From: a virus
Lineage: Duplodnaviria; Heunggongvirae; Uroviricota; Caudoviricetes; Crassvirales
Virus record (IMG/VR): IMGVR_UViG_3300027816_000067
Coordinates: 8,322 to 72,321 of that record
Reading direction: 5' to 3' (one strand)
DNA length: 64,000 bases
Both the position numbers and the translations under genes were made by a program. Each line of letters starts with the position of its first letter. Positions within the stretch are counted from its first letter, which is position 1. The notes under the pieces were generated by a model that was given only the letters and a program-made list of their open reading frames with translations, ran no database searches and had not been told where the DNA came from. Shown in pieces: positions 6,714 to 52,327 of the stretch.

Positions 6714-7922
6714 TTATTTAGTTACTAATTTACTGAAATCAAATTTACTAACATCAAAGTCTGGTTGTGAGTTTCTTGACCCTCCACTTGTTCCTGAAAC
6801 TTTAGAACCACCTCTGTTATTATTTTCTTTATTAGCCCAACTCCAGGTTTTTATAGGAGCCTTTGTTGCGCTACTAATATTTTTAAAGTCTTTAAAAACG
6901 ATATAATCTAAAAATAAACGTTGTGCTAAAGATAATTTATTACGTTTATACTCTACTAAACTATATCCTTTTTGATCTGTTTCAAATAAAGCTTTTTCAA
7001 AAGCTGGAATATCTGTTGCAGGAATACTTAATCCACCAAAGTCATTCTTTTTAACGATAGACTTAGCTTCATTAACAATTTTAGCAACTTCTTCTTGTTC
7101 TGCTGTAATTCTTGCTTCTTCTGCTTTTAATTGAGCATCAATAGCTTCCTTATGTTTTGCAGTTAGTTCTGTTTTTGCTTCTTTAGCTTTATTATATAAT
7201 TCTCCTTTAGCTTTATATAAATCTACAAATATTGCGGTATCTGCTTCTGAAATTCCTTTATTCTTGAAATTAAGTTCAATCAAAGATTTATACGCTGCAT
7301 TTTTCTTATCTTTTATTTCATCAGTATCAGTTTCAACAACTTCTTCTAATGCAATAGTTTCAAATACAGGTTTTGTGTTCTTAGCTAAAAATGATTCAAT
7401 ACTCTTTTGAGAAGCGATGTGCTTATAGAAATCTTCCATATAAGGAACCGTTTTTAGTGATTCCATAAACATCATTTCTGCAAGCTTAGGTACTAAATCA
7501 TTTGTTAACTTCTTTAAACCTTCAGGACTATTATCATACTTCTCTTCTAGTTTAATACCATAATTTTGTTCATATTCGGCTTTTAAACTAGTAATTTCAT
7601 CTAATTCAGGTGAAGTATATTTTTGAAGAAACTCCTTTTCTTCATCTGTAATATCTTTTTCTTCTTTTTTACTAAGTTCATCTAACTTAGCTTGTACTTC
7701 TTCTTCTGTAGGTTCTGCAGGTTCATTTTGACCTTCACTACCTTTTGAAGGAGCAGCCGCAGCCGTTGCTTCTTTAGCCTTACGGTCTGCAATTTCTTTT
7801 TCTGCAAGAGCCAGTTTTTCTGCTTCTGATAGATTACCATCATTAGACTTAACTGGTTCTGCATTTCCAGCACCAGGCATTTTTGCTACTAGTGCTGCTA
7901 AATCTCCTATTCCTTCTGCCAT
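6714..7922 (-). CDS. Scaffold-like acidic coiled-coil protein
   Basis: 402 aa, very rich in E/K/A with coiled-coil-type low complexity; sits between the putative portal and capsid genes. Confidence 0.4.
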   Translation of the reverse strand: MAEGIGDLAALVAKMPGAGNAEPVKSNDGNLSEAEKLALAEKEIADRKAKEATAAAAPSKGSEGQNEPAEPTEEEVQAKLDELSKKEEKDITDEEKEFLQKYTSPELDEITSLKAEYEQNYGIKLEEKYDNSPEGLKKLTNDLVPKLAEMMFMESLKTVPYMEDFYKHIASQKSIESFLAKNTKPVFETIALEEVVETDTDEIKDKKNAAYKSLIELNFKNKGISEADTAIFVDLYKAKGELYNKAKEAKTELTAKHKEAIDAQLKAEEARITAEQEEVAKIVNEAKSIVKKNDFGGLSIPATDIPAFEKALFETDQKGYSLVEYKRNKLSLAQRLFLDYIVFKDFKNISSATKAPIKTWSWANKENNNRGGSKVSGTSGGSRNSQPDFDVSKFDFSKLVTK

Positions 7923-8021
7923 TTGTGTTAAAATTAGTGGTTATATTTTATTATTTAAAATCCGAAAAGTCTATATATAATAGACTTTTCAATCATGGAG
8001 AAAATGCTATATCACTATATC

Positions 8022-10352
8022 TTATTCCCCTGATGTTTTATTCTTTAGTTTTGTTTCATTATCTAGTTTATTCATACGTTCTTTTGAAGCAATTTCTCTT
8101 AACTTAGTTGCGTTCTTCATCATTTCAATCGCATTTTTTTCTAACTCTATTTTTGTCATATCAATTTTTTCTTTATCAGCATTTGGATCAGCTTCTAAAG
8201 AAGAAAGATTCTCCGCGATTTTCATTCCTTGTTGAATAAGAGCAACTTGAGTATCTGTAAGTGCCTTTAAATCTGCATCATAATATTGAAAATCTAATTG
8301 ATCTTGTTTTGTCTTAGCTTCCATATCAGTCATATACTTCTGTAACTGATCTTGTCTTGCTTGACGTTGTTCTAACTTTACATCCATCTCATCCATTATT
8401 TCATGAATAGCTGCAAAATTATTACTGTCAATTAATTTAGCAATAGATTTAGCATCACCACCATTCTGTACTAGTGGATGTATTTGTTCTTTCATTAAAT
8501 TAAGTTTCTCTAATTCTTCTCCTCCGTTACGTACAAATACTCCAAAATCTGTATTTACGTAAGTAGAAGGATTAAGTAAATCTAAAATTGCTTTAGCGCC
8601 ATCTGGACGCATATACTGTGCATAAATACCATCACTAAAAGCAAATTTAGATAGTTCAATTAATCCGGTATATGCTCTCTGTTCCAGTTCTTCAAATTGT
8701 AAGAACAGTTCTTCACTAACTACATAACCTGTTTGTAGAGCAAATTGACTTGTGGCTTTTCCGTCACTAGCCATAAAGTTTCCCTTACGTTGACGATTAA
8801 TACCACATAACTCATCGTACTCTGCTTTAATTGCTGCAACTAGCTCAAAAGAACGAGTAATATGCTCACTCATACTAAGGTCGAGTTCCTTTAAAGCTTG
8901 AACCATTGCAGAAGCGTTTGATCTTGTATCATCAAAAAACAAGAAACTAAATGCTCTTACATAATACATTAACTTATCTTCATCCCATCCTTCTTTTTTA
9001 GGAATTAAACCAAGAGGAAAAAGAATAATCTTATCAAGAGACTTTAACAAACTTTCTTCTGCACGATATTTTACAATATTAACAGATTTTTGAAACGCAT
9101 CTCCTTTAGTTACTATTGATCTAGGACGTGTGTGACGTGAAAAGAAATTACGTCCATTGTATAATAACTTAGCTTTACCAGGATTATTATATTCTCCGCG
9201 TTGAATTGGAATAGGACGTCCTCCTATATAATAATTATCTCCAATACAATATACTTCACAAATTTCATCTACCCAACGCCACTCGATTTCAAACTCTCCT
9301 CTATCTTTAAATGTTTCATCTACGTAAATATAATCAACATTACCAAAAATATCAGTAGTTGTAATTTTACCTACTTTAATAGAACTACGCCATAAGATAT
9401 GATCTACTTCTATACCATCACTATATTGTTCTTCCGGAAGAGTACCAAATACATTTCTGTATAATTGAGACTGTTGTGCAAAGACATCACTAGAAGCATA
9501 ATAATAACTATCACTTCTTCCAACGTTTTGTCCTCCAGATTGACGTTCTAGAAAATCTTGTAGTTCTTGTTTATTAAAACCTTCTACTCCTTGAAAGCGA
9601 TCATAAATTTCGCTTACACTTAATTTATGAGTACATTTAACTGATTCACCGTCTTCAATAAAGTCATGATGAGGACTGCATAAATAATTAATATTAACTG
9701 GACTTACAATTTCAAAATGTGTCCTATTATTAATAACGTCATTATAATAATAGGTCATTGCATTTACAATAAAATCATAAAATCCTTTTCTAAAATGTCT
9801 AAACAAATCATTATAGTCCATTATAAACTCTAACGCTGCTTGACCTTGTTTAGTTACTTCATCAGGAAGGTTCTTTACTTTTCTAGCAATTTCATCAAAT
9901 TTATATACAATTTCTTCTTCTTCCAATGGAACACCCATTGCAACAGAATTATTTACAAACATCTGTTGAAGATGTTCAGTCATTAGTTGTTTATAATATC
10001 TTGCTTGATCGCTAGTGTAATTATGATTTCTAGCATAAACAATAGGTGTAAATCTACGTTTAGATTTTTCACCCATTAATGTGTTGACATTAGGACTTAT
10101 AATATCATAATTACGCATTTTAGCTGGATAGCCTTGTAATTCCCAGCGTTTAGAGTTAATAGGATTAGTTACATATAAATAATCCTTTTCGTCTAATTCT
10201 CCATTAGCTAATCTGTAATTCTTTAATGCTTCTGCTTCATCTATTGCAGGTTGACAAGCATCACGATAATACTTACCATTTTCTTCATACCAATCAGCTG
10301 TTTTTTCTGATTTAGGTACACGTTGTTTTGGTCTACTATGAACTCTAATCAT
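8022..10352 (-). CDS. Putative portal protein
   Basis: 776-aa ORF directly downstream of the large terminase, with a charged coiled-coil C-terminal tail. Called from position and size. Confidence 0.45.
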   Translation of the reverse strand: MIRVHSRPKQRVPKSEKTADWYEENGKYYRDACQPAIDEAEALKNYRLANGELDEKDYLYVTNPINSKRWELQGYPAKMRNYDIISPNVNTLMGEKSKRRFTPIVYARNHNYTSDQARYYKQLMTEHLQQMFVNNSVAMGVPLEEEEIVYKFDEIARKVKNLPDEVTKQGQAALEFIMDYNDLFRHFRKGFYDFIVNAMTYYYNDVINNRTHFEIVSPVNINYLCSPHHDFIEDGESVKCTHKLSVSEIYDRFQGVEGFNKQELQDFLERQSGGQNVGRSDSYYYASSDVFAQQSQLYRNVFGTLPEEQYSDGIEVDHILWRSSIKVGKITTTDIFGNVDYIYVDETFKDRGEFEIEWRWVDEICEVYCIGDNYYIGGRPIPIQRGEYNNPGKAKLLYNGRNFFSRHTRPRSIVTKGDAFQKSVNIVKYRAEESLLKSLDKIILFPLGLIPKKEGWDEDKLMYYVRAFSFLFFDDTRSNASAMVQALKELDLSMSEHITRSFELVAAIKAEYDELCGINRQRKGNFMASDGKATSQFALQTGYVVSEELFLQFEELEQRAYTGLIELSKFAFSDGIYAQYMRPDGAKAILDLLNPSTYVNTDFGVFVRNGGEELEKLNLMKEQIHPLVQNGGDAKSIAKLIDSNNFAAIHEIMDEMDVKLEQRQARQDQLQKYMTDMEAKTKQDQLDFQYYDADLKALTDTQVALIQQGMKIAENLSSLEADPNADKEKIDMTKIELEKNAIEMMKNATKLREIASKERMNKLDNETKLKNKTSGE

Positions 10353-10354
10353 AA

Positions 10355-12391
10355 TTATCTAAAATGCCGTCTATTAAAGAAGTTAGAAGGTTCTTGTGAA
10401 TTATGAGAACTAGGACTTATATCTTTATAAGCCAGTTCTTTCTGATAATAGGCCAAAATACGGAGTGCAGAAATTCGGTCAAAGTTACCACCCTCTACAC
10501 GATATTGATGTATTTCTTGTAAAGTAGATGGACATCTTATGGTATGAATGTTTAAAATTGAATTACCGTTTTCATCAGCACCTCTTGGAGTAATTAACCA
10601 GTCATTGAGATATTTATTACCTTTATGCATACGTAGGTTTTCTTTACCACTACCAATATGCATACCAAACTGACGTCTCACTTTGCTTCTTGGAATGTCA
10701 GCATCGAAAGCTAACTCAAATTCATCAGATAGCCAATCCAATAGTTTAAACCTCTTTGCGTATCCAATAACATCACCACGATCATTTTCAAATCCTATTT
10801 TAGCATTATAATATCTAGCTAAGTCAAATAATACTTTATTGTAATCATCTGTTGTTTTTGGTCTACCAAAATAAGTAGCAACAATTCTATCTCCAGGTGG
10901 TATTAATTTATTAGGTTGCATATAAACATAAGCAGCACCAATAGACTCACTATCTGTACTACTATCAAAGGCGTATGGATCATGTGCAATAATATAAAGA
11001 TCATCAGGAACTCTACCATTTACTTTAAAAGGAGCAGTATATTGAACAACACAACCATCAAGATTTTCTTTAATATTATGAGGATACTTATCTATAGGTT
11101 TTACTTTATCACTATAACTAAACTCGTATTTCCCATTAACATTTGTAATAATTCCTGGTACTCCTAGTTTATGTAAACCAAGATTAATTACACGATGGTA
11201 CCATTCTAATGCTTCGTTTGCAGGTAAAACAGTATGAGTATTTTTTAGAATAGCTTCTTGTGGTACGTATGGATGTTCTGATTTAATTTGAATTAATGCA
11301 TTACCGTCAGGTGATTTAGAAGCAGATTCTCTTTCTTTATCAAAGTGTTGTTTAGCTTCTTTTTCTAAACTGTTACCGTTAAGATCTTTAAACTCTACAT
11401 TTCTATAAGCAGGAGTAAAATAAGCACAGGTAGTTCCTTTTAAACCTTCATCATAATCATTATTATAAGCTCTAACATTATACGCTTCAGGAGCATAAAA
11501 CATTTTCTCCATAGCACCAAATTTAGCAGAATTAGAACCACCAGTACCAAATGCCCAGATAAGACCATAAGTAACACCACCCTGTTCCATAGAAGAGCGC
11601 ATTACATTAAATACTGTATCTGCTTGAGGAGCAGCACCATATTCTTCAAAAAGAACTAATCTACCTCGTTTACCACGAACCTTATCAATATCATCTTTAT
11701 AACTTACTCCCATTACTTCACTCATATACCCTCTTTCCTCACTATCTACATTAGTGGAGGCTCTAAAGTGCATATCATTAATATCTTTTTTATAGTCAGA
11801 AGGCTTACCAAACGCAGTTAAATATCTACGCTCATCTGGGTGCTGACTATTAATAAAGCTTCTATAAGACAGAAACTTAGTAAATAAACCATCACCTAGT
11901 AAAAATTCAGTAGTATAAGCTACCATATAAGATTTACTACTAGGATATAAAAAGAAATTTTTTGCAGCTTTACTTGCTCCTTTAAATGAAGCACCAACAC
12001 CGCGAGGTTTCAACCATATAAAATGTTGACCATTAATTTCTGCTAACTCTATTTCATTCCAAACATTATAATCTTCATCCCAAAAATCAGGAAATCCTGC
12101 GAGACGTTCACCACGAACTCTATTACTTTTAACTTTATCTTTAAAGATAGTTCCATAAGTAGCTTCTAAATCTACTTTCTGGACTTTCATAATAGGACTA
12201 TAATTTAAATACCAGTAATGATCTCCAGTAATTCGCATACCAGAAACCTCATAACCATTTAGTACTCTTTCTCTTTCTCTATCCCAGTATTCATGATATT
12301 CATAACTATCATAAACACCATCAGAGTATCTTTTATACTTTTCGTAATAAAGAGCAGCTTCTCTAAAATATTGTGTATTTACACTAATCAT
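10355..12391 (-). CDS. terL: Terminase large subunit (ATPase + nuclease)
   Basis: 678 aa. N-terminal P-loop-like LKPRGVGASFKGAS with a downstream hydrophobic-DE (VLFEEYG) Walker-B-like segment. C-terminal YIIAHDPY acidic motif consistent with an RNaseH-fold terminase nuclease. Sits at the head of the packaging/structural operon. Confidence 0.6.
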   Translation of the reverse strand: MISVNTQYFREAALYYEKYKRYSDGVYDSYEYHEYWDRERERVLNGYEVSGMRITGDHYWYLNYSPIMKVQKVDLEATYGTIFKDKVKSNRVRGERLAGFPDFWDEDYNVWNEIELAEINGQHFIWLKPRGVGASFKGASKAAKNFFLYPSSKSYMVAYTTEFLLGDGLFTKFLSYRSFINSQHPDERRYLTAFGKPSDYKKDINDMHFRASTNVDSEERGYMSEVMGVSYKDDIDKVRGKRGRLVLFEEYGAAPQADTVFNVMRSSMEQGGVTYGLIWAFGTGGSNSAKFGAMEKMFYAPEAYNVRAYNNDYDEGLKGTTCAYFTPAYRNVEFKDLNGNSLEKEAKQHFDKERESASKSPDGNALIQIKSEHPYVPQEAILKNTHTVLPANEALEWYHRVINLGLHKLGVPGIITNVNGKYEFSYSDKVKPIDKYPHNIKENLDGCVVQYTAPFKVNGRVPDDLYIIAHDPYAFDSSTDSESIGAAYVYMQPNKLIPPGDRIVATYFGRPKTTDDYNKVLFDLARYYNAKIGFENDRGDVIGYAKRFKLLDWLSDEFELAFDADIPRSKVRRQFGMHIGSGKENLRMHKGNKYLNDWLITPRGADENGNSILNIHTIRCPSTLQEIHQYRVEGGNFDRISALRILAYYQKELAYKDISPSSHNSQEPSNFFNRRHFR

Positions 12392-29820: not shown

Positions 29821-30024
29821 ATGATAGCATTTTATATTTTTATTGGATTTATTCTTTGTTCTATTTTATACGCAGTTTGTTTTTTATATCTTCATAAAAA
29901 AAATTATCGTATTATTCAAAAGTCTGATGCTATAAAGCTGTGGGAACTAGGCGATGCTTATGGTGATCCTGTTTCTTTTAATAATGCAGCAGAAGCATTT
30001 GAAAAAGAGTGGAGTAAATTATAA
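29821..30024 (+). CDS. Small membrane protein
   Basis: 67 aa with an N-terminal hydrophobic helix. Confidence 0.4.
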   Translation: MIAFYIFIGFILCSILYAVCFLYLHKKNYRIIQKSDAIKLWELGDAYGDPVSFNNAAEAFEKEWSKL

Positions 30025-30034
30025 TGTAGTATTT

Positions 30035-30370
30035 GGGGCAGATTGGTTTTGACATGAATAGTTATATTATATAATCAAGCGTAGGGAAGTATGTTGTACC
30101 TACTGAAAATGCGCATACAACAACGATTGCTAAAGAAGCAAAAGTAGTGCCTATGTTTCCTCAAGGAGTAAATGTAGGACAAAGTGAAGGTGTTCAGCTA
30201 CGTGTAGCTGCTTAAAGAACACTTAGTTTAAGTTGAACAGGTTTAATTCTATATAATGTACCTTAAACAAATATAGATGGTGGAAGGTGTTCCTATCGGG
30301 AAGCCCCAAAGCTTGTATAAATTGTATAATGTAGTATTTATGGACAGGGGTTCGATTCCCCTCTGCTCCA
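30035..30370 (+). ncRNA. ssrA: tmRNA (ssrA), standard one-piece form
   Basis: 5' GGGGCAGATTGGTTTTGACATG resembles the tmRNA 5' consensus GGGGCUGAUUCUGGAUUCGACGGG. 3' GGACAGGGGTTCGATTCCCCTCTGCTCCA resembles GGACGGGGGUUCAAAUCCCCCCGGCUCCA. The acceptor stem GGGGCAG/CTGCTCC carries the G3-U70 wobble needed for alanylation, with discriminator A and no encoded CCA. An internal reading frame ends ...GVQLRVAA-TAA at 30213-30215, a typical tag ending. Confidence 0.75.
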
Positions 30371-30389
30371 CTAATAAGTTGAACACTGG

Positions 30390-30474
30390 GCCATTGTGTT
30401 GGAACTGGTAGACAAGACAGACTTAAAATCTGTTGTTCGTTAAGAACGTGGAGGTTCGATTCCTCTCAATGGTA
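30390..30474 (+). tRNA. tRNA-Leu (anticodon UAA), type II
   Basis: Acceptor GCCATTG/CAATGGT with G1-U72 wobble. Anticodon stem ACAGA/TCTGT with loop CTTAAAA. Long variable-arm hairpin GTTCGTTAAGAAC. T-arm GGAGG-TTCGATT-CCTCT. Discriminator A. Confidence 0.7.
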
Positions 30475-30572
30475 CGACTAGTTAGAGATTTTGCTATTTC
30501 TCTTTAATCAGATAGCGGGTGTACGGAACTACCAAGTGATCCTTTTTATTTAATTTTCTAAAGTACATTTTT

Positions 30573-31184
30573 ATGTCAAAAATCGTAAGTATCCGTAAAG
30601 TAGCTAATGGTTCATTTCAAGCAGAAATGACAGGTTTAGTTGAGCGTCCTGGTGCAGTTAACGTTCTCGCTCATCTTAATAAAGGTGATGCTCGTTTTCG
30701 TTCTGGTTCTGAGCGTAGAGTATGGTTTCCTGTAACTCTTGCAACACTTCAAGAAGATTTTAATTTGCCTGAATCAACAATCAGTAATATTATGAATCTT
30801 GAACAAGGAGAACGTTTTGAATTGGCTATTGAAAATCCCACTCTTCAAGGTGAGAAACTAGCTATTCAGGTTAGAGAAACTACTATTCCTGATGCATGGC
30901 AAAAACAAAATATTGCCAAGTCTGCAAAGCAATTAATGATAACTGATAAGGTTGCTTCTAGTAAAATCAAAACTGAGTATGATCTTACTAAATATGTAGG
31001 TCAAAATGGTTATTTCTTGGATGAGGAAGGACATTTTATCTTCTCTCGTACAAGTGTAAACATTGCTTCTCAAATTAACCATGTATTTGTTGAAGGTACT
31101 TTTGTACCAGAAAGCGAATTACCTAGTTATGGAGAGACTTTAGCAAGTGCTAAAGTAGGTGATGCAGCAATGCAAGAAGCTTAA
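30573..31184 (+). CDS. Hypothetical protein
   Basis: 203-aa ORF followed by a strong terminator. Confidence 0.55.
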   Translation: MSKIVSIRKVANGSFQAEMTGLVERPGAVNVLAHLNKGDARFRSGSERRVWFPVTLATLQEDFNLPESTISNIMNLEQGERFELAIENPTLQGEKLAIQVRETTIPDAWQKQNIAKSAKQLMITDKVASSKIKTEYDLTKYVGQNGYFLDEEGHFIFSRTSVNIASQINHVFVEGTFVPESELPSYGETLASAKVGDAAMQEA

Positions 31185-32486: not shown

Positions 32487-34772
32487 ATGTATTACTTCAT
32501 TACTGCTAAAGCTCAAAGTTGGAACCACCCTGAAATAGAAATTGTGGGAAATTTAGCTAAAATGAAGGAAGCAATTACAAATAGTACTTTATTAGGATGT
32601 GATACAGAAAATAATAGCATTAATCCTATAAATGCTACACCATTATTGTTTCAAATTTCTGACGGTAAAGACAGTTTTGTTGTAGATATTACAACAATAG
32701 GTACTGAATTTTTAAAAGATATTAATTTTACAGGTAAAAAACTAATTTTTCATAACGCACAATATGATTGGAAGATTTTAAATCAGCAATATGGAGTATC
32801 TTTAGATATTGATAATATTATAGATACTATGATACATGAACAAATTCTAGGAAGAGGTAGTGGACGATCTGCATCTTTAGAAGAAACTCATTTTAGACGT
32901 CTTAATGCGTTTATGCCAATGAGTAAATCTACTAGAGATGATTTTATTAAAATGAAATATAATCCTAAATTTCAATGGGAGCATATTTATTATTCTGCAT
33001 ACGATCCTATTTGTTTATTTCCTATTTTAGAAAAACAAAAACCACTGATTAGTCAGTATAAATTAGAGAGAAGAGTATATGAAATAGGTGATCCTTTAGT
33101 TCCAATACTAGGGGAAATGTGCGTTAATGGATTTACTTTAGATAGTAATAAGTGGTTGGAGGTTTTAAATGAAAATAAAAGTAAAAAGTTTCAAATTGAA
33201 TTAAAATTAGATGAAGAAATTGTAAAATTTTCTAAAGATCATCCTAAATTAAAAGGTGGTTTATGGACTAATAAAAGAAAAAAAGTAGAATTAGAACAGT
33301 TATCTTTTTTTGGTCAGTCTGTAAGTATATCTAATGAAAATAAAAGAAATGTTTCTTATTCTTCAACTAAACAATTAGTTAAATTATTTACTATTTTAGG
33401 AGAACCAATTCCTCAAAAACAAGATAGAGAAGGTAAAGAAGAAGATTTTAAAGCAAAAAAGAATTCATTTGCAGAAGAAGCACTTGAACAATATAAGATA
33501 GAATATCCTAGTTCTAAGGTTTTACCATTTATTAATAAATTATTAGAGTATAGAAAATATGAAAAAGCTATTAATTCTTTTGGAGAAATATTTCTTAAAG
33601 AGTTAATACGTAAGCCAGGTTCAAAAAAATCTAAAATTGGTTATTATAATAGTAAAACTGGAAAAGTTCATACTATATATAAACAAGAATTTACTAAAAA
33701 TGGTCGTTTATCTTCTGGTGATGTTAAAAATGGTTTTTATAATAGCCAACAAATTATAAAAGATAATAAATATAGAAACTGTTTTACTTTAACACAAGAA
33801 GAAATAGCTAATGGTTGGTATGTTTCTACTTATGATTTGAGTAGTGCAGAATTAGTTATTCTTGCTAGTAATAGTAGAGATAAAACTTTGATTAAGCTTT
33901 TAAAAGAGAAAGCGGATCTTCATTGTTATCTTGCTAGTGCTATCTATACTAAAATTATTTCTTATATTAAAAATACAATGTCTTCTAATAGAGCATATGA
34001 TGAAATTGCTCAATTATTAGTTGTAAATAGATTACAGCAAGACTATGAGCATGAATATGAGGAAAATGGTGTTAAAAAGAAGAGAAAATTTACTTATTTA
34101 GAGTTATCTCAAATTCATAATGAACGTATAGAATTAGCATTAAGTCAAAAGGAGTTTAAAATAGATAAGAAAAAATATCCTGATATTAGAAATCCTGTTA
34201 AAAATATCGTATATGGTATTAATTATGGTGCAGGAGAAGAGAAAGTTGCTGAAACACTAAATATTGCACCTTATTATGCCAAGCTTGCTTTAGAAGCTAT
34301 GAGAGAATCCTTACCTGAAGCTTTTGCGTATCTAGATAGAATATCAAATTTTGGTGTTAAGAATGGTTATTTAATATTTAATGAAAGAACTAATTCTAGA
34401 CATTGGTTTGAAACTTGGTTAGACGCACAAAGAAAAGGTATTGAGTTATCTCAAAAAGATAAGTCTGCTATTAAGCGTGCTTGTAAAAATTATGGTATTA
34501 GTGGCACTCAAGCCGATATGATTAAAGAGTCTATGGTTAATATTCATAGATTTGTGAATAATCAATTTGGATCAAATAGACGGGATAATTTTAGGTGGTT
34601 ATTACAAGTACATGATGAAATTGTATTTGCACATAAAGCTAATAATTTACAAGAAGCAGAAAAATTTGCAAAACAAATTGGTCAGGTAGTTACTAATACT
34701 TGTAACTTATATTTAAATGAAATAGAAATGGAAGTTTCAGGACATACTGGACATTGTTGGCATAAAGATTAA
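32487..34772 (+). CDS. polA: DNA polymerase, family A, with 3'-5' proofreading exonuclease
   Basis: 761 aa. Exo I GCDTEN, Exo II FHNAQYDW, Exo III YSAYD. Polymerase motif A YDLSSAELVILA, motif B RNPVKNIVYGINYG, motif C QVHDEIVF. Confidence 0.85.
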   Translation: MYYFITAKAQSWNHPEIEIVGNLAKMKEAITNSTLLGCDTENNSINPINATPLLFQISDGKDSFVVDITTIGTEFLKDINFTGKKLIFHNAQYDWKILNQQYGVSLDIDNIIDTMIHEQILGRGSGRSASLEETHFRRLNAFMPMSKSTRDDFIKMKYNPKFQWEHIYYSAYDPICLFPILEKQKPLISQYKLERRVYEIGDPLVPILGEMCVNGFTLDSNKWLEVLNENKSKKFQIELKLDEEIVKFSKDHPKLKGGLWTNKRKKVELEQLSFFGQSVSISNENKRNVSYSSTKQLVKLFTILGEPIPQKQDREGKEEDFKAKKNSFAEEALEQYKIEYPSSKVLPFINKLLEYRKYEKAINSFGEIFLKELIRKPGSKKSKIGYYNSKTGKVHTIYKQEFTKNGRLSSGDVKNGFYNSQQIIKDNKYRNCFTLTQEEIANGWYVSTYDLSSAELVILASNSRDKTLIKLLKEKADLHCYLASAIYTKIISYIKNTMSSNRAYDEIAQLLVVNRLQQDYEHEYEENGVKKKRKFTYLELSQIHNERIELALSQKEFKIDKKKYPDIRNPVKNIVYGINYGAGEEKVAETLNIAPYYAKLALEAMRESLPEAFAYLDRISNFGVKNGYLIFNERTNSRHWFETWLDAQRKGIELSQKDKSAIKRACKNYGISGTQADMIKESMVNIHRFVNNQFGSNRRDNFRWLLQVHDEIVFAHKANNLQEAEKFAKQIGQVVTNTCNLYLNEIEMEVSGHTGHCWHKD

Positions 34773-34951: not shown

Positions 34952-35272
34952 ATGGCAAAAAAACCAGAGCATAGTTTTTTTAAAAAAGTTAGAGCCGAAA
35001 GAATAGCAAATTGTGGAGATTGTGGTGGTAATCCACCTACTGATAAATTTAATCTACAAGGAATGTTTGGTCTTTATTGTACTAAATGTATGGAAGTTGT
35101 TAATTGGCGACCTACACAAGACACTACACCTAAAATTCCTGTCGTAGTCTCTATTGATGAAACAGGTAAAGATCATTATGATCCTATGAACTCTAGAGTA
35201 GTAACTCTAGAATTAAGAGAAAATGTTCCTGTAGATAAAAAAATTAAATTTGAAGAATTAAAAATTGAATAA
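34952..35272 (+). CDS. Zinc-ribbon hypothetical protein
   Basis: 106 aa; CGDCGG...CTKC. Confidence 0.45.
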   Translation: MAKKPEHSFFKKVRAERIANCGDCGGNPPTDKFNLQGMFGLYCTKCMEVVNWRPTQDTTPKIPVVVSIDETGKDHYDPMNSRVVTLELRENVPVDKKIKFEELKIE

Positions 35273-36551
35273 TATGGCTGATGTAGTAGCAAATGTATTA
35301 CCTACTTTATACACATTAGATTCTTTTAATAAAGTTAGAATATTTAAAGCTAGTGTTGTAGCTAGTTCAACAGAAGATGGATATGCTATTAAAACTGAAA
35401 CAGGTTTAATAGATGGTAAACTTACTCCTAAGATGGAATTAGTTAAAAAAGGTAAACAAAAAAGAAATGTTTATGAGCAGGCTATATTTCAGTTAAACGC
35501 TTTGTGGAGACAAAAATTAGATGAAGGATATAAATCTCTAGATGACCTTGTTAAAAGATTATTGGAGTTTAATATAATTCAAGTAAATTACAATATCACA
35601 GAACAAGAAATATTAGCAAAAGCTATTAACTATATACCTAATTTTGCTTATACAAATAGTAACTGGGATGAATTACCAATGCTTGCACATAAGATAAAAG
35701 ATGTAAAGGTATTAAATTTTCCTTACATTATTCAACCTAAGTTAGATGGTGTTAGATGTTTAGTAAAAAAAAAAAACCTAGATGCTGTTTTAATTAGTAG
35801 AGGTGGTCAATATTATCAAATACCTCATTTAATAAACGATCTTACTATATTTTTAAAACGTTTAGGAAATGCTGGTTATAGTTCTTTATTATTAGATGGT
35901 GAAATTTACAAACATGGGATTCCTCTTCAAGAAATTTCTGGAGCAGCTAGAAAAGAAGAAAATGGAATGTTTGCTTCTAATAGTTGGTTAGAATATCATA
36001 TTTATGATGTTATTTCATTGATTGATAGTAAAGCATCACAAAGAGAACGTGATTTATTATTAACCATTAATCAAAAATATTCTTTTGATTTACTTTCTAT
36101 TAAATTTGTAGAAAGTAAAAAAATCTACAGTAAAGAAGAAGCTGAAATGGTGCATAATTATTATGTATCACAAGGATATGAAGGTGCCATTCTAAGAAAT
36201 CCTATGGGTATTTATGAATTTAATACTAGATCATATTCATTGATTAAAATAAAAGAATATCAAGACGAAGAATTTGAAATTATTGCTTGTGGTAATGATG
36301 AAAATAAATCTATTGGTGAGTCTTTTTATTTTGTATTAAAGAACAATATTAATGATTTAATATTTAAATCTAGACCTACTGGAACAGAAAAGCAAAAAGA
36401 GTATTGGTTCTATAATATAGATAAGTTTAAAGGTAAGAAAGCTACTGTTAGATTTTTTACAAGAAGTAATGATGGATTGCCTACTCAGGGTGTTGTAAGA
36501 CATAAAGATACTGAAATATTAGTTAAACATATTAGATCAGATGGAGAATAA
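35265..36551 (+). CDS. ATP-dependent DNA ligase
   Basis: 428 aa. Motif I KLDGVR (IIQPKLDGVRCLV), motif IV-like YEGAILR, motif V-like LIKIK. Contains an A12 homopolymer at 35765-35776. Confidence 0.7.
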   Translation: MNNMADVVANVLPTLYTLDSFNKVRIFKASVVASSTEDGYAIKTETGLIDGKLTPKMELVKKGKQKRNVYEQAIFQLNALWRQKLDEGYKSLDDLVKRLLEFNIIQVNYNITEQEILAKAINYIPNFAYTNSNWDELPMLAHKIKDVKVLNFPYIIQPKLDGVRCLVKKKNLDAVLISRGGQYYQIPHLINDLTIFLKRLGNAGYSSLLLDGEIYKHGIPLQEISGAARKEENGMFASNSWLEYHIYDVISLIDSKASQRERDLLLTINQKYSFDLLSIKFVESKKIYSKEEAEMVHNYYVSQGYEGAILRNPMGIYEFNTRSYSLIKIKEYQDEEFEIIACGNDENKSIGESFYFVLKNNINDLIFKSRPTGTEKQKEYWFYNIDKFKGKKATVRFFTRSNDGLPTQGVVRHKDTEILVKHIRSDGE

Positions 36552-48046: not shown

Positions 48047-48290
48047 AGTTACATTATTTGTAACTGCTTTTGTTCAAGTAACTTTTGTAGCTATGAGTTC
48101 TGTCAGTATTATTAACAACAGTCTTATTATGATTGGTGTTACTGGATTTATGATTTCATTTATTTGGACACTCAATGTTAAAAAAGTTGCTTTTGGTAAT
48201 ACAAGAGATAGGTTTATTTACGCAATAGGTGCTATGTTAGGCACCTATTGCGGTTATTTTTTAAGTAAATATTTAATCACAATTATATGA
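48027..48290 (+). CDS. Small membrane protein
   Basis: 87 aa, two hydrophobic helices. Confidence 0.4.
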   Translation: MIGLKDKVTLFVTAFVQVTFVAMSSVSIINNSLIMIGVTGFMISFIWTLNVKKVAFGNTRDRFIYAIGAMLGTYCGYFLSKYLITII

Positions 48291-49378
48291 TATTAGCAAA
48301 AGTAGTAGCAGACAGTAAAAACGAATTTGGTGATCGTATTACTACAATGATAGTTACATTTCCACGTATTATTTTAGCAGAATTTAATACTCATAGAATG
48401 TTTAGTAGAAACTCTGCAAGTAGTAGAGCTATACCATTTGAGAAGATGGTTAAATCTATTAAAGAAAATCCCTTTGTGCCTATAGCATGGATGAAAGATC
48501 ATAGAGGTATGCAAGGAACTGAATTTTTTACTAATGAAGATGAGATTAGAGAATTAAAAAGTCAGTATTTATTTGCTAGAGATTATGCAGTACAACAAGC
48601 AGAAACATTAAACGGTAAAGGACTTACTAAACAAATTGTTAATAGAGGTTTAGAAGCTTATATGTGGCATACAGTAATTGTAACTGCTACAGAATGGGAG
48701 AATTTCTTTGCATTGAGGTGTCCACAATATAGTATTAATGAACCTAATAAAGAAGTTAGTGGTAAATTATTTAGAAGTTGGAAAGATGTAATCAAAGCTA
48801 TTACTTCTTATGATCTTCGTAATCATGATTATGATTTCTATTCTAAGTTTGATAATACTAAAAAACTTAAACATAATAAAGGTCAAGCTGAAATTCACAT
48901 GATGGCTTTAGCAGAAGCAATGTGGGATGCTTATAATGAATCCACTCCTAAAGAATTAAAGGCTGGTGAGTGGCATATACCATTTGGGGATAATCTCGAT
49001 GAGTTTCAAGTTTATAAACAATTTAGCTTAGGCACTATTAACGAATGGGGCATTAAGAGTTTTAGAACTGAATTAGATATTTTGAAGATCAAAATAGCAA
49101 CTGCTCGTTGTGCAAGAGTATCTTATACAGTAGTTGGTGAAGAAGGTAAAGAACCTAATTATGAAAATGATGTAAAACTTCATGATAGATTAGCTGAAAG
49201 TGGTCATTGGAGTCCATTTGAGCATTGTGCTAAAGCTATGAATTTTGGTGAATTTGATAATTCATTTCATAAAGGAAATAGTGGAGATGGACCTGAATTT
49301 TATAGTAATGGATGGAGCGGTAATTTTAGAGGCTTTGTTCAATATCGTAAGATGTTTAATAATGAAAACATAAGTTAA
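48287..49378 (+). CDS. thyX: Flavin-dependent thymidylate synthase (ThyX), long form
   Basis: 363 aa. ILAEFNTHRMFSRNSASSRAI matches the ThyX signature (R)HRxxSxNxxSxR. Confidence 0.65.
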   Translation: MILAKVVADSKNEFGDRITTMIVTFPRIILAEFNTHRMFSRNSASSRAIPFEKMVKSIKENPFVPIAWMKDHRGMQGTEFFTNEDEIRELKSQYLFARDYAVQQAETLNGKGLTKQIVNRGLEAYMWHTVIVTATEWENFFALRCPQYSINEPNKEVSGKLFRSWKDVIKAITSYDLRNHDYDFYSKFDNTKKLKHNKGQAEIHMMALAEAMWDAYNESTPKELKAGEWHIPFGDNLDEFQVYKQFSLGTINEWGIKSFRTELDILKIKIATARCARVSYTVVGEEGKEPNYENDVKLHDRLAESGHWSPFEHCAKAMNFGEFDNSFHKGNSGDGPEFYSNGWSGNFRGFVQYRKMFNNENIS

Positions 49379-49432: not shown

Positions 49433-50329
49433 ATGATTATAGGAATAAGTGGTAAAATTGGTAGTGGTAAAGATACTGTGGGTAAAATTATACAGTATTT
49501 AACTATTAAATCTGATAATAAAATTGTAGAAGCATTACATGAAACTAAAGAAATTGATATTATTAAATTTTTAGATAAATGGAATGGTAATCAATCAGAT
49601 TGGCAAATTAAAAAGTTTGCAGGTAAACTTAAACAAATTGTATCTATACTGACTGGAATATCTGTTGAAGATTTAGAGAAACAAGAAGTTAAAGATAGAT
49701 TATTAGGAGAAGATTGGACTAGATACGGTTATGCTGATGGTTTTAGTGATGTCTATAAAGACGGTGTCAAAGTTGTTACTATGATGAACAAAGAATGTTC
49801 TAAAGAAAGATATGAAGATGAACTAAGAGTTAATTGGCAAACAGCTTATAAAGTAAAATACAATCCTAGACTATTAATGCAGTATATTGGTACTGATTTA
49901 TTTAGAGATAAACTACTTAACAACATTTGGGTTAATGCTTTGTTTGCTGATTACAAAAGTAAATTTGCTGGTGAAGATGGATTTACTACTCATACTTATG
50001 ATAAAATAAAAGATTCTCAAGGAAATTATACAAAAATAACTATAAAAATAAAAGACCATCCATTATTTGAGCCTTCACATTTTCCTAATTGGATTATTAC
50101 TGATATGCGGTTTCCTAATGAGCTACAAGCTATTAAAGATAGAGGAGGTATTTGTGTTAGAGTTAATAGATTGCTAAGTGAAGGAAATAGAGCTTACACA
50201 GAAATTCATCCTTCTGAAACAGCTTTAGATAATGCTACTTTTGATTATACAATTAATAACAATGAAACAATCGAACAACTGGTGGGTAAGGTTAAAGAGA
50301 TTCTTATTTGTGAGAGAATTATTTCTTAG
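49433..50329 (+). CDS. P-loop nucleotide kinase (dNMP kinase-like)
   Basis: 298 aa. N-terminal Walker A IIGISGKIGSGKDTVG (the GxxxSGKDT pattern of phage dNMP kinases). Confidence 0.5.
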   Translation: MIIGISGKIGSGKDTVGKIIQYLTIKSDNKIVEALHETKEIDIIKFLDKWNGNQSDWQIKKFAGKLKQIVSILTGISVEDLEKQEVKDRLLGEDWTRYGYADGFSDVYKDGVKVVTMMNKECSKERYEDELRVNWQTAYKVKYNPRLLMQYIGTDLFRDKLLNNIWVNALFADYKSKFAGEDGFTTHTYDKIKDSQGNYTKITIKIKDHPLFEPSHFPNWIITDMRFPNELQAIKDRGGICVRVNRLLSEGNRAYTEIHPSETALDNATFDYTINNNETIEQLVGKVKEILICERIIS

Positions 50330-51289: not shown

Positions 51290-51539
51290 ATATACGTTTT
51301 GGTTATACTTTCTTAGAAATAACTATGAAGATGTAAATAAAAGAGAGTGGGTTGTTGTTATAAAACAAAACAATCGTTTAAAAGGATTAAAATTTATTGT
51401 TAATAAAATAAATATTGACGTACCTACTTGGGTAGTTAATAGAGGTTTAAGAAAACATCCTTGTGGTGTCATTAGTGGAGAGTTTAGTCAATTTATTGTT
51501 TGGGAAGATAAAGGAATAAAATATATTTTAATAGAATGA
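51273..51539 (+). CDS. Hypothetical protein
   Basis: 88-aa ORF. Confidence 0.4.
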   Translation: MSSENKYTFWLYFLRNNYEDVNKREWVVVIKQNNRLKGLKFIVNKINIDVPTWVVNRGLRKHPCGVISGEFSQFIVWEDKGIKYILIE

Positions 51540-52327
51540 ATTTAGCAGATAAAATAGGTGAAAGATGGGTTCCTATTCTTGGACAAGAATTTGAAAAAGA
51601 ATATCTTCAAAAACTTGGTGCTTGGATTACATATACAAGACAAAGTAAAACAATTTATCCTGAAAGTCAAGATATATTTAAAGCTTTAAAGCTATGTCCA
51701 TATGGTCAGGTTAAAGTTGTTATTATTGGTCAAGATCCTTATTATGATGGCACTGCGGATGGTTTAGCTTTTTCCTATAAAGATGGATTAAAGTTTCCAA
51801 AAGGTAAAAAATCTCTTGATATTATACTAGAAGAAATAGAAAGAGATTGTTACGATGGATTCAATTTAAATAAAGACTATCAATTAGATTATCTTGCTAA
51901 ACAAGGTGTTCTTTTGCTTAATAGTATATTAACTGTGTTTAAGGGAAAACCTGCAAGTCATAAAGATTTAGGTTGGGAAAACTTTACAGATGCTGTTATT
52001 ATTAGTCAAATAATGGAACCCTCTCGCAAAGTATTTATGTTATGGGGTAATGAAGCTAAGGCAGCATTTAATAGAGTTAAATCCAAAATTGATTATTTTT
52101 TCTATGATGTTCATTTAGTTTTAGAAGCAAAACATCCTGCATCTGACTTATATAATTCAGATAGTTTTGGAAATATTACACCAAATTACCCTAATACATT
52201 TAGCGGTTGTAAACATTTTAGTCAAGCTAATCAATTTTTATTAGATACACATACTACTTGTATTGATTGGTTACCTGTAACAGAACCACATTTTAATCTT
52301 AAATTGAGCGATACTGCTCCTTTTTAA
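51536..52327 (+). CDS. ung: Uracil-DNA glycosylase, family 1 (UNG)
   Basis: 263 aa. VVIIGQDPYYDGTADGLAFS matches the UNG water-activating loop GQDPYH...GLAFS. GVLLLNSILTV matches the UNG motif VLLLNAVLTV. Confidence 0.75.
   Translation: MNLADKIGERWVPILGQEFEKEYLQKLGAWITYTRQSKTIYPESQDIFKALKLCPYGQVKVVIIGQDPYYDGTADGLAFSYKDGLKFPKGKKSLDIILEEIERDCYDGFNLNKDYQLDYLAKQGVLLLNSILTVFKGKPASHKDLGWENFTDAVIISQIMEPSRKVFMLWGNEAKAAFNRVKSKIDYFFYDVHLVLEAKHPASDLYNSDSFGNITPNYPNTFSGCKHFSQANQFLLDTHTTCIDWLPVTEPHFNLKLSDTAPF

Follow-up and report, generated by a model that had tools for sequence, protein, structure and literature searches.

The window analysed here, a stretch of phage DNA 64,000 nucleotides long, carries a genuine tmRNA (ssrA) gene followed by a tRNA-Leu gene, both conserved among related phages. 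We consider it likely that the former encodes a functional one-piece tmRNA, inherited in a crAss-like phage lineage and probably co-expressed with the tRNA-Leu(UAA) as a translation-support cassette. Phage tmRNAs are already known, and the gene in the window is a well-supported further example; what is new is its conservation in 10 of 13 lineages, the covariation of its fold and a conserved tag of 28 amino acids. The preliminary description of this DNA had called tmRNA genes rare in phages, in agreement with their occurrence in about 2.3% of phage genomes, though the phenomenon is well documented (PMC9004378).

The identity of the gene, for which a one-piece tmRNA had been claimed, was borne out by the covariance-model check, in which two methods agree. 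ARAGORN calls the tmRNA at 30035-30371 (337 nt; plus strand, as are all features described below), and Rfam model RF00023 matches 30035-30373 with 102.6 bits (gathering score 47; E 5.6e-39), covering model positions 1-374, its full length. The span given earlier for the tmRNA and tRNA-Leu together, 30035-30474, proved exact. The RF00023 match places the gene in the standard order; in the Rfam scan of the window, the permuted two-piece model RF04321 gave no match at its gathering score and no riboswitch was detected. CCA is encoded in neither RNA gene, so that the mature 3′ end of the tmRNA is probably the discriminator A30370 with a post-transcriptional CCA.

The fold of the tmRNA is under selection in these phages. 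Across its 44 pairs, 98.2% of positions are paired, versus 36-52% when the partners are slid, and compensatory changes occur at 23 of the 44; none of 500 shuffles reached the observed values. In the tRNA-like domain, which is the best-conserved part of the molecule, the 5′ strand of the acceptor stem (GGGGCAG, 30035-30041) pairs with CUGCUCC (30363-30369), the latter forming with the discriminator A the 3′ element at 30363-30370. The G3-U70 pair noted in the preliminary description is present; it is the alanine identity pair and is invariant in all ten copies, and acceptor pairs 4-7 covary (GC/CG, CG/UA/GC/GU, AU/UA/CG and GC/AU, respectively). The T-arm (30346-30362) consists of A-GGGG, a UUCGAUU loop and CCCC-U; three of the five T-stem (helix 7) pairs covary, and the T-loop residues and discriminator are invariant. 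The two strands of helix 2, taken from the covariation analysis, lie at 30053-30080 and 30311-30343, and helices 2-4 (the long helix 2) comprise 22 pairs, 12 of them with compensatory changes and 95-100% of cells paired.

Pseudoknot PK1 (30081-30118) sits upstream of the resume codon, and both of its stems are 100% paired. Stem 1 (30081-30085/30099-30103) has three covarying pairs, and stem 2, formed by GUAUG (30089-30093) and CAUAC (30114-30118), has one, changing from U:A to C:G or G:U; in lineages L017 and L019 stem 2 shows matched deletions on both sides. Helix 5 (30188-30224) is a two-tier hairpin found in the MFE folds of all copies. Its inner stem, AGCUA/UAGCU, holds the last tag codons, with the stop codon in an internal loop, and its outer stem, GGUGUUC/GAACACU in the window, covaries among genomes (CUGUUC/GAACAG, GGAGUUC/GAACUCU and UCUGUUC/GAACAGA). 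The place of PK2-PK4 is taken by a compact interior of 93 nt (30216-30308), in which the motif (A/G)UGGUGGA is conserved and candidate helices occur. Posterior probability in the Rfam alignment is low across this interior, and a crude search there for H-type pseudoknots corresponding to PK2-PK4 was not significant, 4-33 of 100 shuffles scoring as high.

The true tag is most likely the 28-residue peptide AKEAKVVPMFPQGVNVGQSEGVQLRVAA, encoded from the resume codon GCU (30129-30131) to the stop UAA (30213-30215), so that the reading frame occupies 30129-30215. In the Rfam alignment, the resume codon of the consensus falls at 30129. The automatic call is corrected accordingly: for the window, ARAGORN reports an in-frame but shorter tag of 13 amino acids, VGQSEGVQLRVAA, starting at 30174, and it calls homologous long tags in L011, L012, L013, L014, L016, L018 and L019. 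The frame ending in QLRVAA-UAA that had been read from the sequence is present, with its stop at 30213-30215. The expected combination of pseudoknot and tag frame is likewise seen for PK1, whose stems are fully paired, and for the frame, which is intact in 10 of 10 copies.

The codon pattern indicates that this frame is under purifying selection as a translated peptide. In the first 16 codons, variable sites are distributed over the three codon positions as 3/2/12 (p=0.002), seven tag codons vary synonymously only, and the N-terminal block AKEAKVVPMF(P/A)QGVNV keeps its amino acids with synonymous variation. In the conserved core pN is 0.02-0.08, against a pS of 0.18-0.48. Between the window and L008, pN/pS of the tag is 0.13, despite the G that both have at position −4 before the resume codon, where 8 of 10 copies have A. 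The A at this position matches the A86 rule of frame setting in E. coli, where the A86G mutant is only partly active (PMC2481249). The tags of the phage family are 21-37 residues long, whereas 105 bacterial tmRNAs have a mode of 9-11 and a maximum of 21. They end in [RKE][VI]AA, with a charged residue (R in the window) at −4 from the C-terminus, which occurs in none of the ARAGORN-called tags of a 115-locus bacterial panel; protease targeting is therefore not assured.

Directly downstream lies a type-II tRNA-Leu with anticodon UAA (30390-30474; RF00005, 53 bits). ARAGORN reports it at 30390-30475 (86 nt, anticodon taa, long variable arm), and the RF00005 alignment inserts 13 nt in the variable region. 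The preliminary description was thus right about the type and position of this tRNA; the spacer that separates it from the tmRNA measures 18 nt rather than 20. Across 15 large ORFs in the window, 60% of the Leu codons are UUA. A tRNA-Leu(UAA) also follows the tmRNA in L008, and L012 has an Rfam-called tRNA in the same place. Between the RNA cassette and the gene for a 203-aa protein is a conserved boundary element (30477-30540), composed of ACTAGTT, a genome-specific hairpin and CTACNAAGTGA. It is also found in L010, which has no tmRNA, and RNAalifold gave no consensus fold for it. ACTAGTT is not enriched in the window and was rejected as a general phage signal. A 15-nt repeat shared by the leader and helix 2 was likewise rejected as a regulatory feature, being found in the window species only. 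A scan for sigma-70 promoters and terminators gave matches no commoner than in shuffles, and none at the cassette.

Among 13 related phage lineages with a PolA 46-77% identical to that of the window, 10 carry the tmRNA, in the same syntenic slot everywhere except in L019. The other three, L010, L015 and L020, lack the gene, which is therefore dispensable. Divergence of the tmRNA roughly follows that of PolA, although the correlation is borderline (rho 0.70, n=8, p=0.054). Four metagenome contigs are 100% identical over a 931-bp intergenic block and, because of this identity, are uninformative for covariation. In IMG/VR, the downstream 203-aa protein as query found no close relatives and PolA one truncated locus only; the sole match to the exact 20-nt 5′ end was a chance site within a coding region.

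With regard to origin, Bacteroidota tmRNAs may share the motif UGGUUUUGACA and chlamydial tags may end in LRVAA, but neither resemblance enters the argument. The HMM of the phage family matches bacterial tmRNAs essentially in the 3′ tRNA-like domain and the adjacent helix 2 only, a region for which the T-arm/acceptor search pattern itself selects, and the few longer alignments score no higher. Since no tmRNA of the 105-member panel is alike outside the tRNA-like domain, the capture is not recent. Assignment of a donor by the T-arm/acceptor pattern was rejected, as a scan of a genome collection matched more than 120 species of many phyla.

The genomic setting is that of a phage. The window has PHROG matches to major head protein, portal, TerL, DNA polymerase, ligase and helicases, together with a 2523-aa ORF without a PHROG match, and phage genes flank the tmRNA on both sides. 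TerL is 32-34% and MCP 29-31% identical to their matches over at least 96% of their length, mostly in crAss-like phages or phages of Bacteroidota hosts. On these protein comparisons, the phage appears to be distantly related to Crassvirales, at about 30-34% identity. Neither the 31 ORFs scanned nor the precomputed Pfam table yielded an integrase family, and no bacterial flank was seen in any contig. Among the proteins encoded in the window are one with a PNK3P domain and a ligase, and components of this type are used by T4 for RNA repair. No SmpB was found in the 64-kb window, which covers about three quarters of the genome at most, and the RNA therefore probably uses host factors. The host cannot be taken from the labels of MAGs, a source rejected as mis-binning, given that identical PolA occurs in deposits assigned to Pseudanabaena and to Planctomycetota. 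With the phage contig deposited in bacterial MAGs of two unrelated phyla, its ssrA could pass for a bacterial gene.

Preservation of both the fold and the translated tag under selection supports the use of trans-translation by the phage. We further infer that the tmRNA is expressed and charged, works with host SmpB, leads to proteolysis of the tagged products and benefits the phage. Host enzymes would trim the precursor and add the CCA end, and host AlaRS would charge the RNA with alanine through the invariant G3:U70. Host SmpB and EF-Tu would bring it to ribosomes of the infected cell that have stalled on mRNAs that are broken or lack a stop codon, where translation would resume at the GCU at 30129, append the 28 residues of AKEAKVVPMFPQGVNVGQSEGVQLRVAA and terminate at UAA, freeing the ribosome. 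The hydrophobic VAA C-terminus most likely marks the tagged fragment for AAA+ proteases of the host; an adaptor may be bound by the conserved N-terminal block of the tag. The likely gain would be added capacity for ribosome rescue amid destruction of host mRNA and heavy translation of AT-rich phage mRNA, with the tRNA-Leu(UAA) serving UUA, the dominant Leu codon of the phage.

A rather unlikely alternative is that this is a working tmRNA with a more special purpose, selected mainly either to counter host abortive-infection nucleases, which cleave mRNAs or tRNAs and so stall ribosomes, or to add a phage-specific peptide whose fate is not generic degradation; the conserved 16-residue N-terminal block would be the functional signal. 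The tag would then be a peptide evolved by the phage, in which AKEAKVVPMFxQGVNV, its N-terminal block, may route what stalled ribosomes produce towards a particular adaptor or protease or some other fate, and the cassette might defeat defences that cut RNA and stall ribosomes; the odds are clearly against this version too. If it were true, the tagging activity, beyond ribosome release, would be what the phage needs. The synonymous variation in the N-terminal block, the length of the tag (21-37 residues against a bacterial mode of 9-11 and maximum of 21 in 105 tmRNAs) and the [RKE][VI]AA ending absent from the bacterial panel are consistent with a specialised peptide, but cluster C mycobacteriophages (25 aa) and some bacteria have long tags as well. 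A phage AAA+ unfoldase linked to the tag was considered and rejected: the gene is found in L016 and L019 only, adjoining the tmRNA in L019; it is absent from the window, whose 270-aa ORF is unrelated to it. The presence/absence polymorphism of the tmRNA is typical of accessory or arms-race genes, and a PNK3P-domain protein and ligase in the window recall RNA repair in T4; however, nothing links the locus to any defence system, and these two proteins are equally consistent with DNA metabolism.

Selection on both fold and peptide argues for trans-translation that includes tagging, and against a decoy or a relic. It is improbable that the RNA merely titrates host SmpB and EF-Tu to block host trans-translation, with no role as a template. 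Such a decoy would fit a window in which no phage SmpB was found and a molecule whose tRNA-like domain is its best-conserved part, and such a role has been proposed for molecules consisting of the tRNA-like domain only, such as that of mycobacteriophage DS6A (PMC4131195). Yet a decoy would need neither PK1, nor the upstream frame-setting sequence, nor helix 5 and a stop, all of which are conserved, and the tag frame, unbroken in every copy, is clearly marked as coding. A mimic of the DS6A type, reduced to the tRNA-like domain, is ruled out by the presence and conservation of PK1, tag frame and helix 5. Chance acquisition of a host ssrA that is now neutral or decaying is strongly disfavoured. 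It could account for a gene that is dispensable (missing in L010, L015 and L020), for the G at the A86-equivalent position of the window copy and for the reduced interior, but not for its retention in lineages with as little as 46% PolA identity, for the 23 pairs with compensatory changes, for a tag under purifying selection or for the lack of any like tmRNA outside the tRNA-like domain in the 105-member panel. Hardly credible is an attP-type copy of a host tmRNA gene serving site-specific integration: prophages commonly integrate at ssrA, and its 3′ part is frequently found in phages (PMC9004378, PMC3146451), but the gene is full length with its own divergent tag rather than a 3′ fragment, the 31 scanned ORFs and the precomputed Pfam table include no integrase, and the gene lies between phage genes, in a phage with crAss-like relatives and no bacterial flank in any contig.

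In the literature consulted, the roles of phage tmRNAs are hypotheses only. The clade described here provides a comparative series in which selection maintains the fold of a phage tmRNA together with the peptide that it encodes. Some relatives have the cassette and others lack it, with a clean boundary between the two states, and they would amount to a natural experiment if a host is found.

Among known systems, the bacterial one-piece tmRNA (RF00023) shares with the window gene the tRNA-like domain with G3:U70, the long helix 2, PK1, a putative upstream frame-setting sequence, a tag running from Ala to a terminal AA, a stop within helix 5 and a full-length match to the model. It differs in that the window copy is phage-encoded, with a tag of 28 residues rather than the modal 9-11, R at −4 from the C-terminus of the tag and a compact interior of 93 nt where PK2-PK4 normally lie. 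In addition, the 5′ part of the tRNA-like domain has UUG in place of the UCG of most bacterial copies (UUG is seen in 2 of the 105 panel members), position −4 before the resume codon has G instead of the near-universal A, and CCA is not encoded.

Cluster C (Bxz1-like) mycobacteriophages and Bacillus phage G, which are listed as carriers of phage ssrA (PMC4131195), also have one-piece tmRNAs in lytic genomes with tRNAs, as well as long tags, of 25 residues as annotated (ATDTDATVTDAEIEAFFAEEAAALV). They are, however, unrelated myoviruses of Actinobacteria and Firmicutes with an unrelated tag, and their similarity to the window is confined to the T-arm. Complete ssrA genes in lytic phages are likewise known from the marine OM43 phage Melnitz and pelagimyophages, where ssrA is common, though not universal, in its own phage group and has been suggested to keep hijacked translation running or to add tags to host proteins (PMC9004378). 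Those genes are two-piece and of the alphaproteobacterial type, some with a glutamine riboswitch, whereas none was detected in the window. Huge phages also bear translation-rescue genes, namely tmRNA and SmpB (PMC7162821); with genomes above 200 kb they can also supply SmpB, whereas the window phage has a genome of about 70-90 kb and none was found in the 64 kb examined. The Crassvirales genomes of the RefSeq crAss-like phages cr7_1 and cr124_1 (Burzaovirus, Suoliviridae) share with it a tmRNA gene with tRNA genes nearby, the 5′ motif TGGTTTTGACA and a segment comprising the helix-2 3′ strand and T-arm (nhmmer, 31-36 bits). They come from the human gut, with another genomic neighbourhood and a 13-aa tag (D/GNVNNIVDYTNVA), and their tmRNAs are annotated as permuted and match RF04321 (63-66 bits), whereas that of the window has the standard order.

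ARAGORN, run on the 64-kb window, called a tmRNA at 30035-30371 (+) and, after a spacer of 18 nt, a tRNA-Leu(taa) at 30390-30475 (+). The Rfam scan, made at gathering threshold, agrees: RF00023 matches 30035-30373 with 102.6 bits (threshold 47; E 5.6e-39), spanning model positions 1-374 without truncation, and RF00005 matches 30390-30474 with 53 bits. No RNA gene beyond these two reached that threshold in the window. The preliminary description had read a one-piece tmRNA directly followed by tRNA-Leu(UAA), and the tmRNA finder and the covariance model bear it out, down to its coordinates and its interpretation as a real phage-encoded tmRNA; the spacer, put there at 20 nt, needs revision. Likewise present are the G3-U70 pair, within the acceptor stem GGGGCAG/CUGCUCC, and the frame ending in QLRVAA-stop (CAG CUA CGU GUA GCU GCU UAA). 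The T-loop is UUCGAUU, and CCA is encoded in neither gene.

ARAGORN gives the window tag as VGQSEGVQLRVAA, starting at 30174. The Rfam alignment sets the consensus resume codon, in the same frame, at GCU 30129-30131, and in seven relatives ARAGORN itself called long tags from the homologous codon. If reading begins at the codon that follows the conserved CAACAAYRAUY motif, 28 aa are obtained for the window (AKEAKVVPMFPQGVNVGQSEGVQLRVAA) and, among the loci of related phage lineages retrieved for comparison (L008-L020), for L008 (AKEAKVVSMFPQGVNVGQSEAVQLRVAA), L014 (AKEAKVVPMFAQGVNVLEGNGVQLRVAA), L016 (AKEANVVPMFSQGVNVLEGKSVELRVAA) and L011 (AKEANVVPMYPQGVNVLEGNSVQLRVAA). The tags of L012 (AEAKVVPMYAQGVNVESVRVEMKIAA, 26 aa), L013 (ANEARIVPMFAQGVNVDEVAMKIAA, 25 aa), L018 (AEDAKVVPFNKVDGNTLAVMKIAA, 24 aa) and L019 (AKEAKQVFLGDVIIGEARIAA, 21 aa) are shorter, and that of L017, with GAC as resume codon and EIAA at its end, reaches 37 aa. 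Overall pN/pS among the five 28-codon copies is 0.13-0.70; in their conserved core (codons 1-16 and the last six) pN is 0.02-0.08 versus a pS of 0.18-0.48. Across codons 1-16 of seven sequences, variable sites number 3, 2 and 12 at codon positions 1, 2 and 3 (binomial p=0.002), and seven of these codons vary synonymously only. This codon-position bias and the low pN argue that the frame upstream of ARAGORN's start is translated. The window tag is most likely 28 aa long and, judged from the substitution pattern, the encoded peptide is under selection.

A reservation about this frame comes from the frame-setting nucleotide at -4 from the resume codon: A86 in E. coli, it is nearly universal, and an A86G change is only partly active in E. 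coli (PMC2481249). This position is A in eight copies and G in the window and L008. Between the tags of these two there are five synonymous and two non-synonymous differences (pN/pS 0.13), which indicates that the tag frame is still selected in the G(-4) sub-lineage.

The fold was assessed on an alignment of ten distinct tmRNAs, from which RNAalifold recovers the acceptor stem, helix 2, PK1 stem 1 and the T-arm, with compensatory double changes at 23 of 42 pairs. Addition of PK1 stem 2 as a pseudoknot before counting gave 44 pairs, in which 98.2% of cells are paired versus 36-52% with partners slid by 1-3 columns. Both sides have changed at 23 of these pairs (65 cells), the covariation score is 0.484 versus 0.05-0.11 for slid partners, and none of 500 shuffles attained any observed pairing measure. 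In L017 and L019, a single-nucleotide deletion in one strand of PK1 stem 2 is matched by one in the other. In the acceptor stem, G1:C, G2:C and G3:U are invariant and pairs 4-7 vary, as maintenance of alanine identity would predict. All copies fold helix 5 into a hairpin of two tiers: its outer stem covaries, its inner stem holds the last tag codons and its internal loop the stop codon. The interval from the stop codon to the helix-2 3' strand measures 93 nt in the window (family range 50-113 nt), and candidate pseudoknots within it were not significant against shuffles. As read from the covariation, the tmRNA fold is under selection.

At blastn level, no similar tmRNA was found in GenBank phages. 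The syntenic regions of twelve other lineages, retrieved through homologs of the family-A DNA polymerase PolA (46-77% identity) and exact-protein look-ups, largely keep the order of a ~202-aa protein, a glucosaminidase, a Band_7 protein and PolA. The ~202-aa gene is closely preceded by the tmRNA in L008/L009, L011, L012, L013, L014, L016 and L018. In L017, where the ~202-aa gene is missing, the tmRNA precedes the glucosaminidase gene, and in L019 it lies ~3.3 kb further upstream. The family HMM found no tmRNA or remnant in L010, L015 and L020; in L010, an upstream hairpin and T-run are followed directly by the ACTAGTT element that elsewhere trails the RNA genes. The tmRNA cassette is a clean presence/absence polymorphism among related phages. 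Its tRNA-Leu(UAA) stands beside the tmRNA in the window and L008. At the same position L012 has a tRNA (7480-7565; Rfam 55 bits, anticodon not assigned) that ARAGORN missed, perhaps owing to an insertion or an atypical D-region, and in L013 that place, right after the tmRNA, is taken by a LAGLIDADG homing-endonuclease ORF (7768-8181).

In the window the element behind the RNA genes (30477-30540) consists of ACTAGTT, a genome-specific hairpin and a CTACNAAGTGA box. It recurs downstream of RNA genes in L008, L010, L011, L012, L014 and L016, with hairpins that differ by genome (AGAGA/TCTCT, GCAGT/ACTGC, GTAGA/TCTAC). In each case it separates the RNA cassette from the ~202-aa gene, and it keeps this place in the tmRNA-less L010 too. 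RNAalifold gave no consensus fold for it, and ACTAGTT is not enriched elsewhere in the window. Candidate roles for this element are processing site, terminator and 5' UTR. The ORF that follows (30573-31184, (+), 203 aa) occurs in 11 of the 13 lineages sampled, with 49-62% identity and many invariant residues among six aligned, and matched nothing in Pfam or PHROG. Immediately 5' of the tmRNA (30020-30034) and again in the helix-2 3' strand (30325-30339) stands a 15-nt direct repeat, TATAATGTAGTATTT, which contains a TATAAT box. It is found in the window species only (0/9 relatives) and is therefore probably incidental.

The window is a tailed-phage genome, with PHROG matches to a major head protein (5247-6704, (-)), portal (8022-10352, (-)), large terminase (TerL; 10355-12391, (-)) and PolA (32487-34772, (+)), besides a ligase, two helicases and an exonuclease. 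TerL (32-34% identity) and the capsid protein (29-31%), both over at least 96% of their length, match mostly named crAss-like phages and phages of Bacteroidota hosts, which suggests a distant relative of Crassvirales. The recorded hosts of these matches are Bacteroides or Flavobacterium, and by relatedness alone the host of the window phage would be a member of Bacteroidota. Other domain matches include ThyX (48287-49378), a dNMP kinase (49433-50329), UDG (51536-52327) and MazG. A PNK3P (polynucleotide kinase 3'-phosphatase) domain in one of 31 aligned window ORFs (E 2.7e-13) could form a nucleic-acid repair pair with the ATP-dependent ligase (35265-36551), and a 2523-aa ORF without PHROG match (55943-63514, (-)) resembles crAss-like giant virion proteins in size and position alone. 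Metagenomic contigs of this phage are widespread and measure at least 68 kb; those from three JGI samples are 68.2-68.4 kb long, others 90, 122 and 125 kb. The longer ones may be concatemer assemblies; contigs of relatives cluster at 90-95 kb. Identical PolA proteins (MFN7465297.1, MFO0419321.1, MFO0448942.1) are deposited at NCBI under a Pseudanabaena sp. MAG and Planctomycetota MAGs. These labels are mutually contradictory and were dropped as indications of origin; the phage contig was evidently binned into unrelated bacterial genomes, and in such MAGs its ssrA and tRNA may be counted as bacterial genes.

The RNA is a tmRNA, and neither SmpB nor an integrase family was found in the 31 ORFs (Pfam) or in the precomputed Pfam table for window 20.5-41 kb. 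The best-supported reading is a working tmRNA reliant on host SmpB, AlaRS, EF-Tu, RNase P and CCA-adding enzyme, which in the infected cell would free stalled ribosomes and add the 28-aa tag. We infer its expression, charging, use of host SmpB, proteolysis of tagged products and selective benefit. UUA makes up 60% of Leu codons in 15 large window ORFs, in a genome of 29% GC, so the adjacent tRNA-Leu(UAA) is consistent with a translation-support cassette. Three other readings, of the RNA as a decoy, of its gene as a passenger and of ssrA as an attP copy, each conflict with a tag frame that is conserved and translated and with a structure that is full-length and covaries. That the tag has a specialised or counter-defence role seems improbable. 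L019 (4349-5161) and L016 (1563-2375) encode a 270-aa AAA+ protein whose AAA_2 domain is of the Clp type, in L019 directly upstream of the tmRNA; it is missing from the window and the other sampled loci, and with the gene in these two only, a tie to the tag is unsupported.

A scan with the T-arm/acceptor pattern, one genome per species, matched more than 120 species of many phyla, a spread with which the pattern fails as a donor marker. ARAGORN called tmRNAs in 115 of these bacterial loci; the median length of the 105 one-piece genes is 351 nt, and their tags are mostly of 9-11 aa (maximum 21). None of the called tags ends in [RK][VI]AA, and the residue at -4 from the C-terminus is A in nearly all. 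The phage-family HMM aligns to bacterial tmRNAs essentially nowhere but in the 3' tRNA-like domain and the part of helix 2 next to it, the region that the search pattern itself selects, and the few longer alignments score no higher. In the 5' domain, GGUUUUGAC occurs in 2/105 bacterial genes, and U-U-G stands there in 10/10 phage copies. The limited alignment and the rarity of GGUUUUGAC in bacteria point to a distinct, old phage tmRNA lineage with an unusually long tag.

Phage ssrA genes have been catalogued in Bxz1-like mycobacteriophages and Bacillus phage G, with a tRNA-like-domain-only form in DS6A (PMC4131195). Huge phages carry tmRNAs and SmpB (PMC7162821), and tmRNAs occur in 402 of 18,146 surveyed phage genomes (2.3%), where upkeep of hijacked translation or host-protein tagging has been proposed (PMC9004378). 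As far as the literature could be searched, tmRNAs of crAss-like phages are nowhere discussed, and mentions are confined to citations of methods. With permissive settings, a search for the 3' 52 nt of the tmRNA retrieved cr7_1 (NC_055895.1; L141 3959-4315) and cr124_1 (NC_055899.1; L142 3959-4315), RefSeq crAss-like phages (Burzaovirus, Suoliviridae) with annotated tmRNAs. In cr7_1 the annotated tmRNA is overlapped at its 3' end by a tRNA-Cys call. Whereas the window family is one-piece, ARAGORN and Rfam (RF04321, 63-66 bits) identify these as permuted two-piece tmRNAs, with the tag D/GNVNNIVDYTNVA. They share with the window family the TGGTTTTGACA motif, the helix-2 3' strand and the T-arm, a likeness that is no more than a lead and could stem from shared ancestry or from a similar host lineage. 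Records of cluster C mycobacteriophages annotate a 25-aa tag, compared with 28 aa in the window. Phage-encoded tmRNA is thus already known; what is added here is a one-piece form in a crAss-like clade, of interest for its conserved long tag and its clean presence/absence polymorphism.
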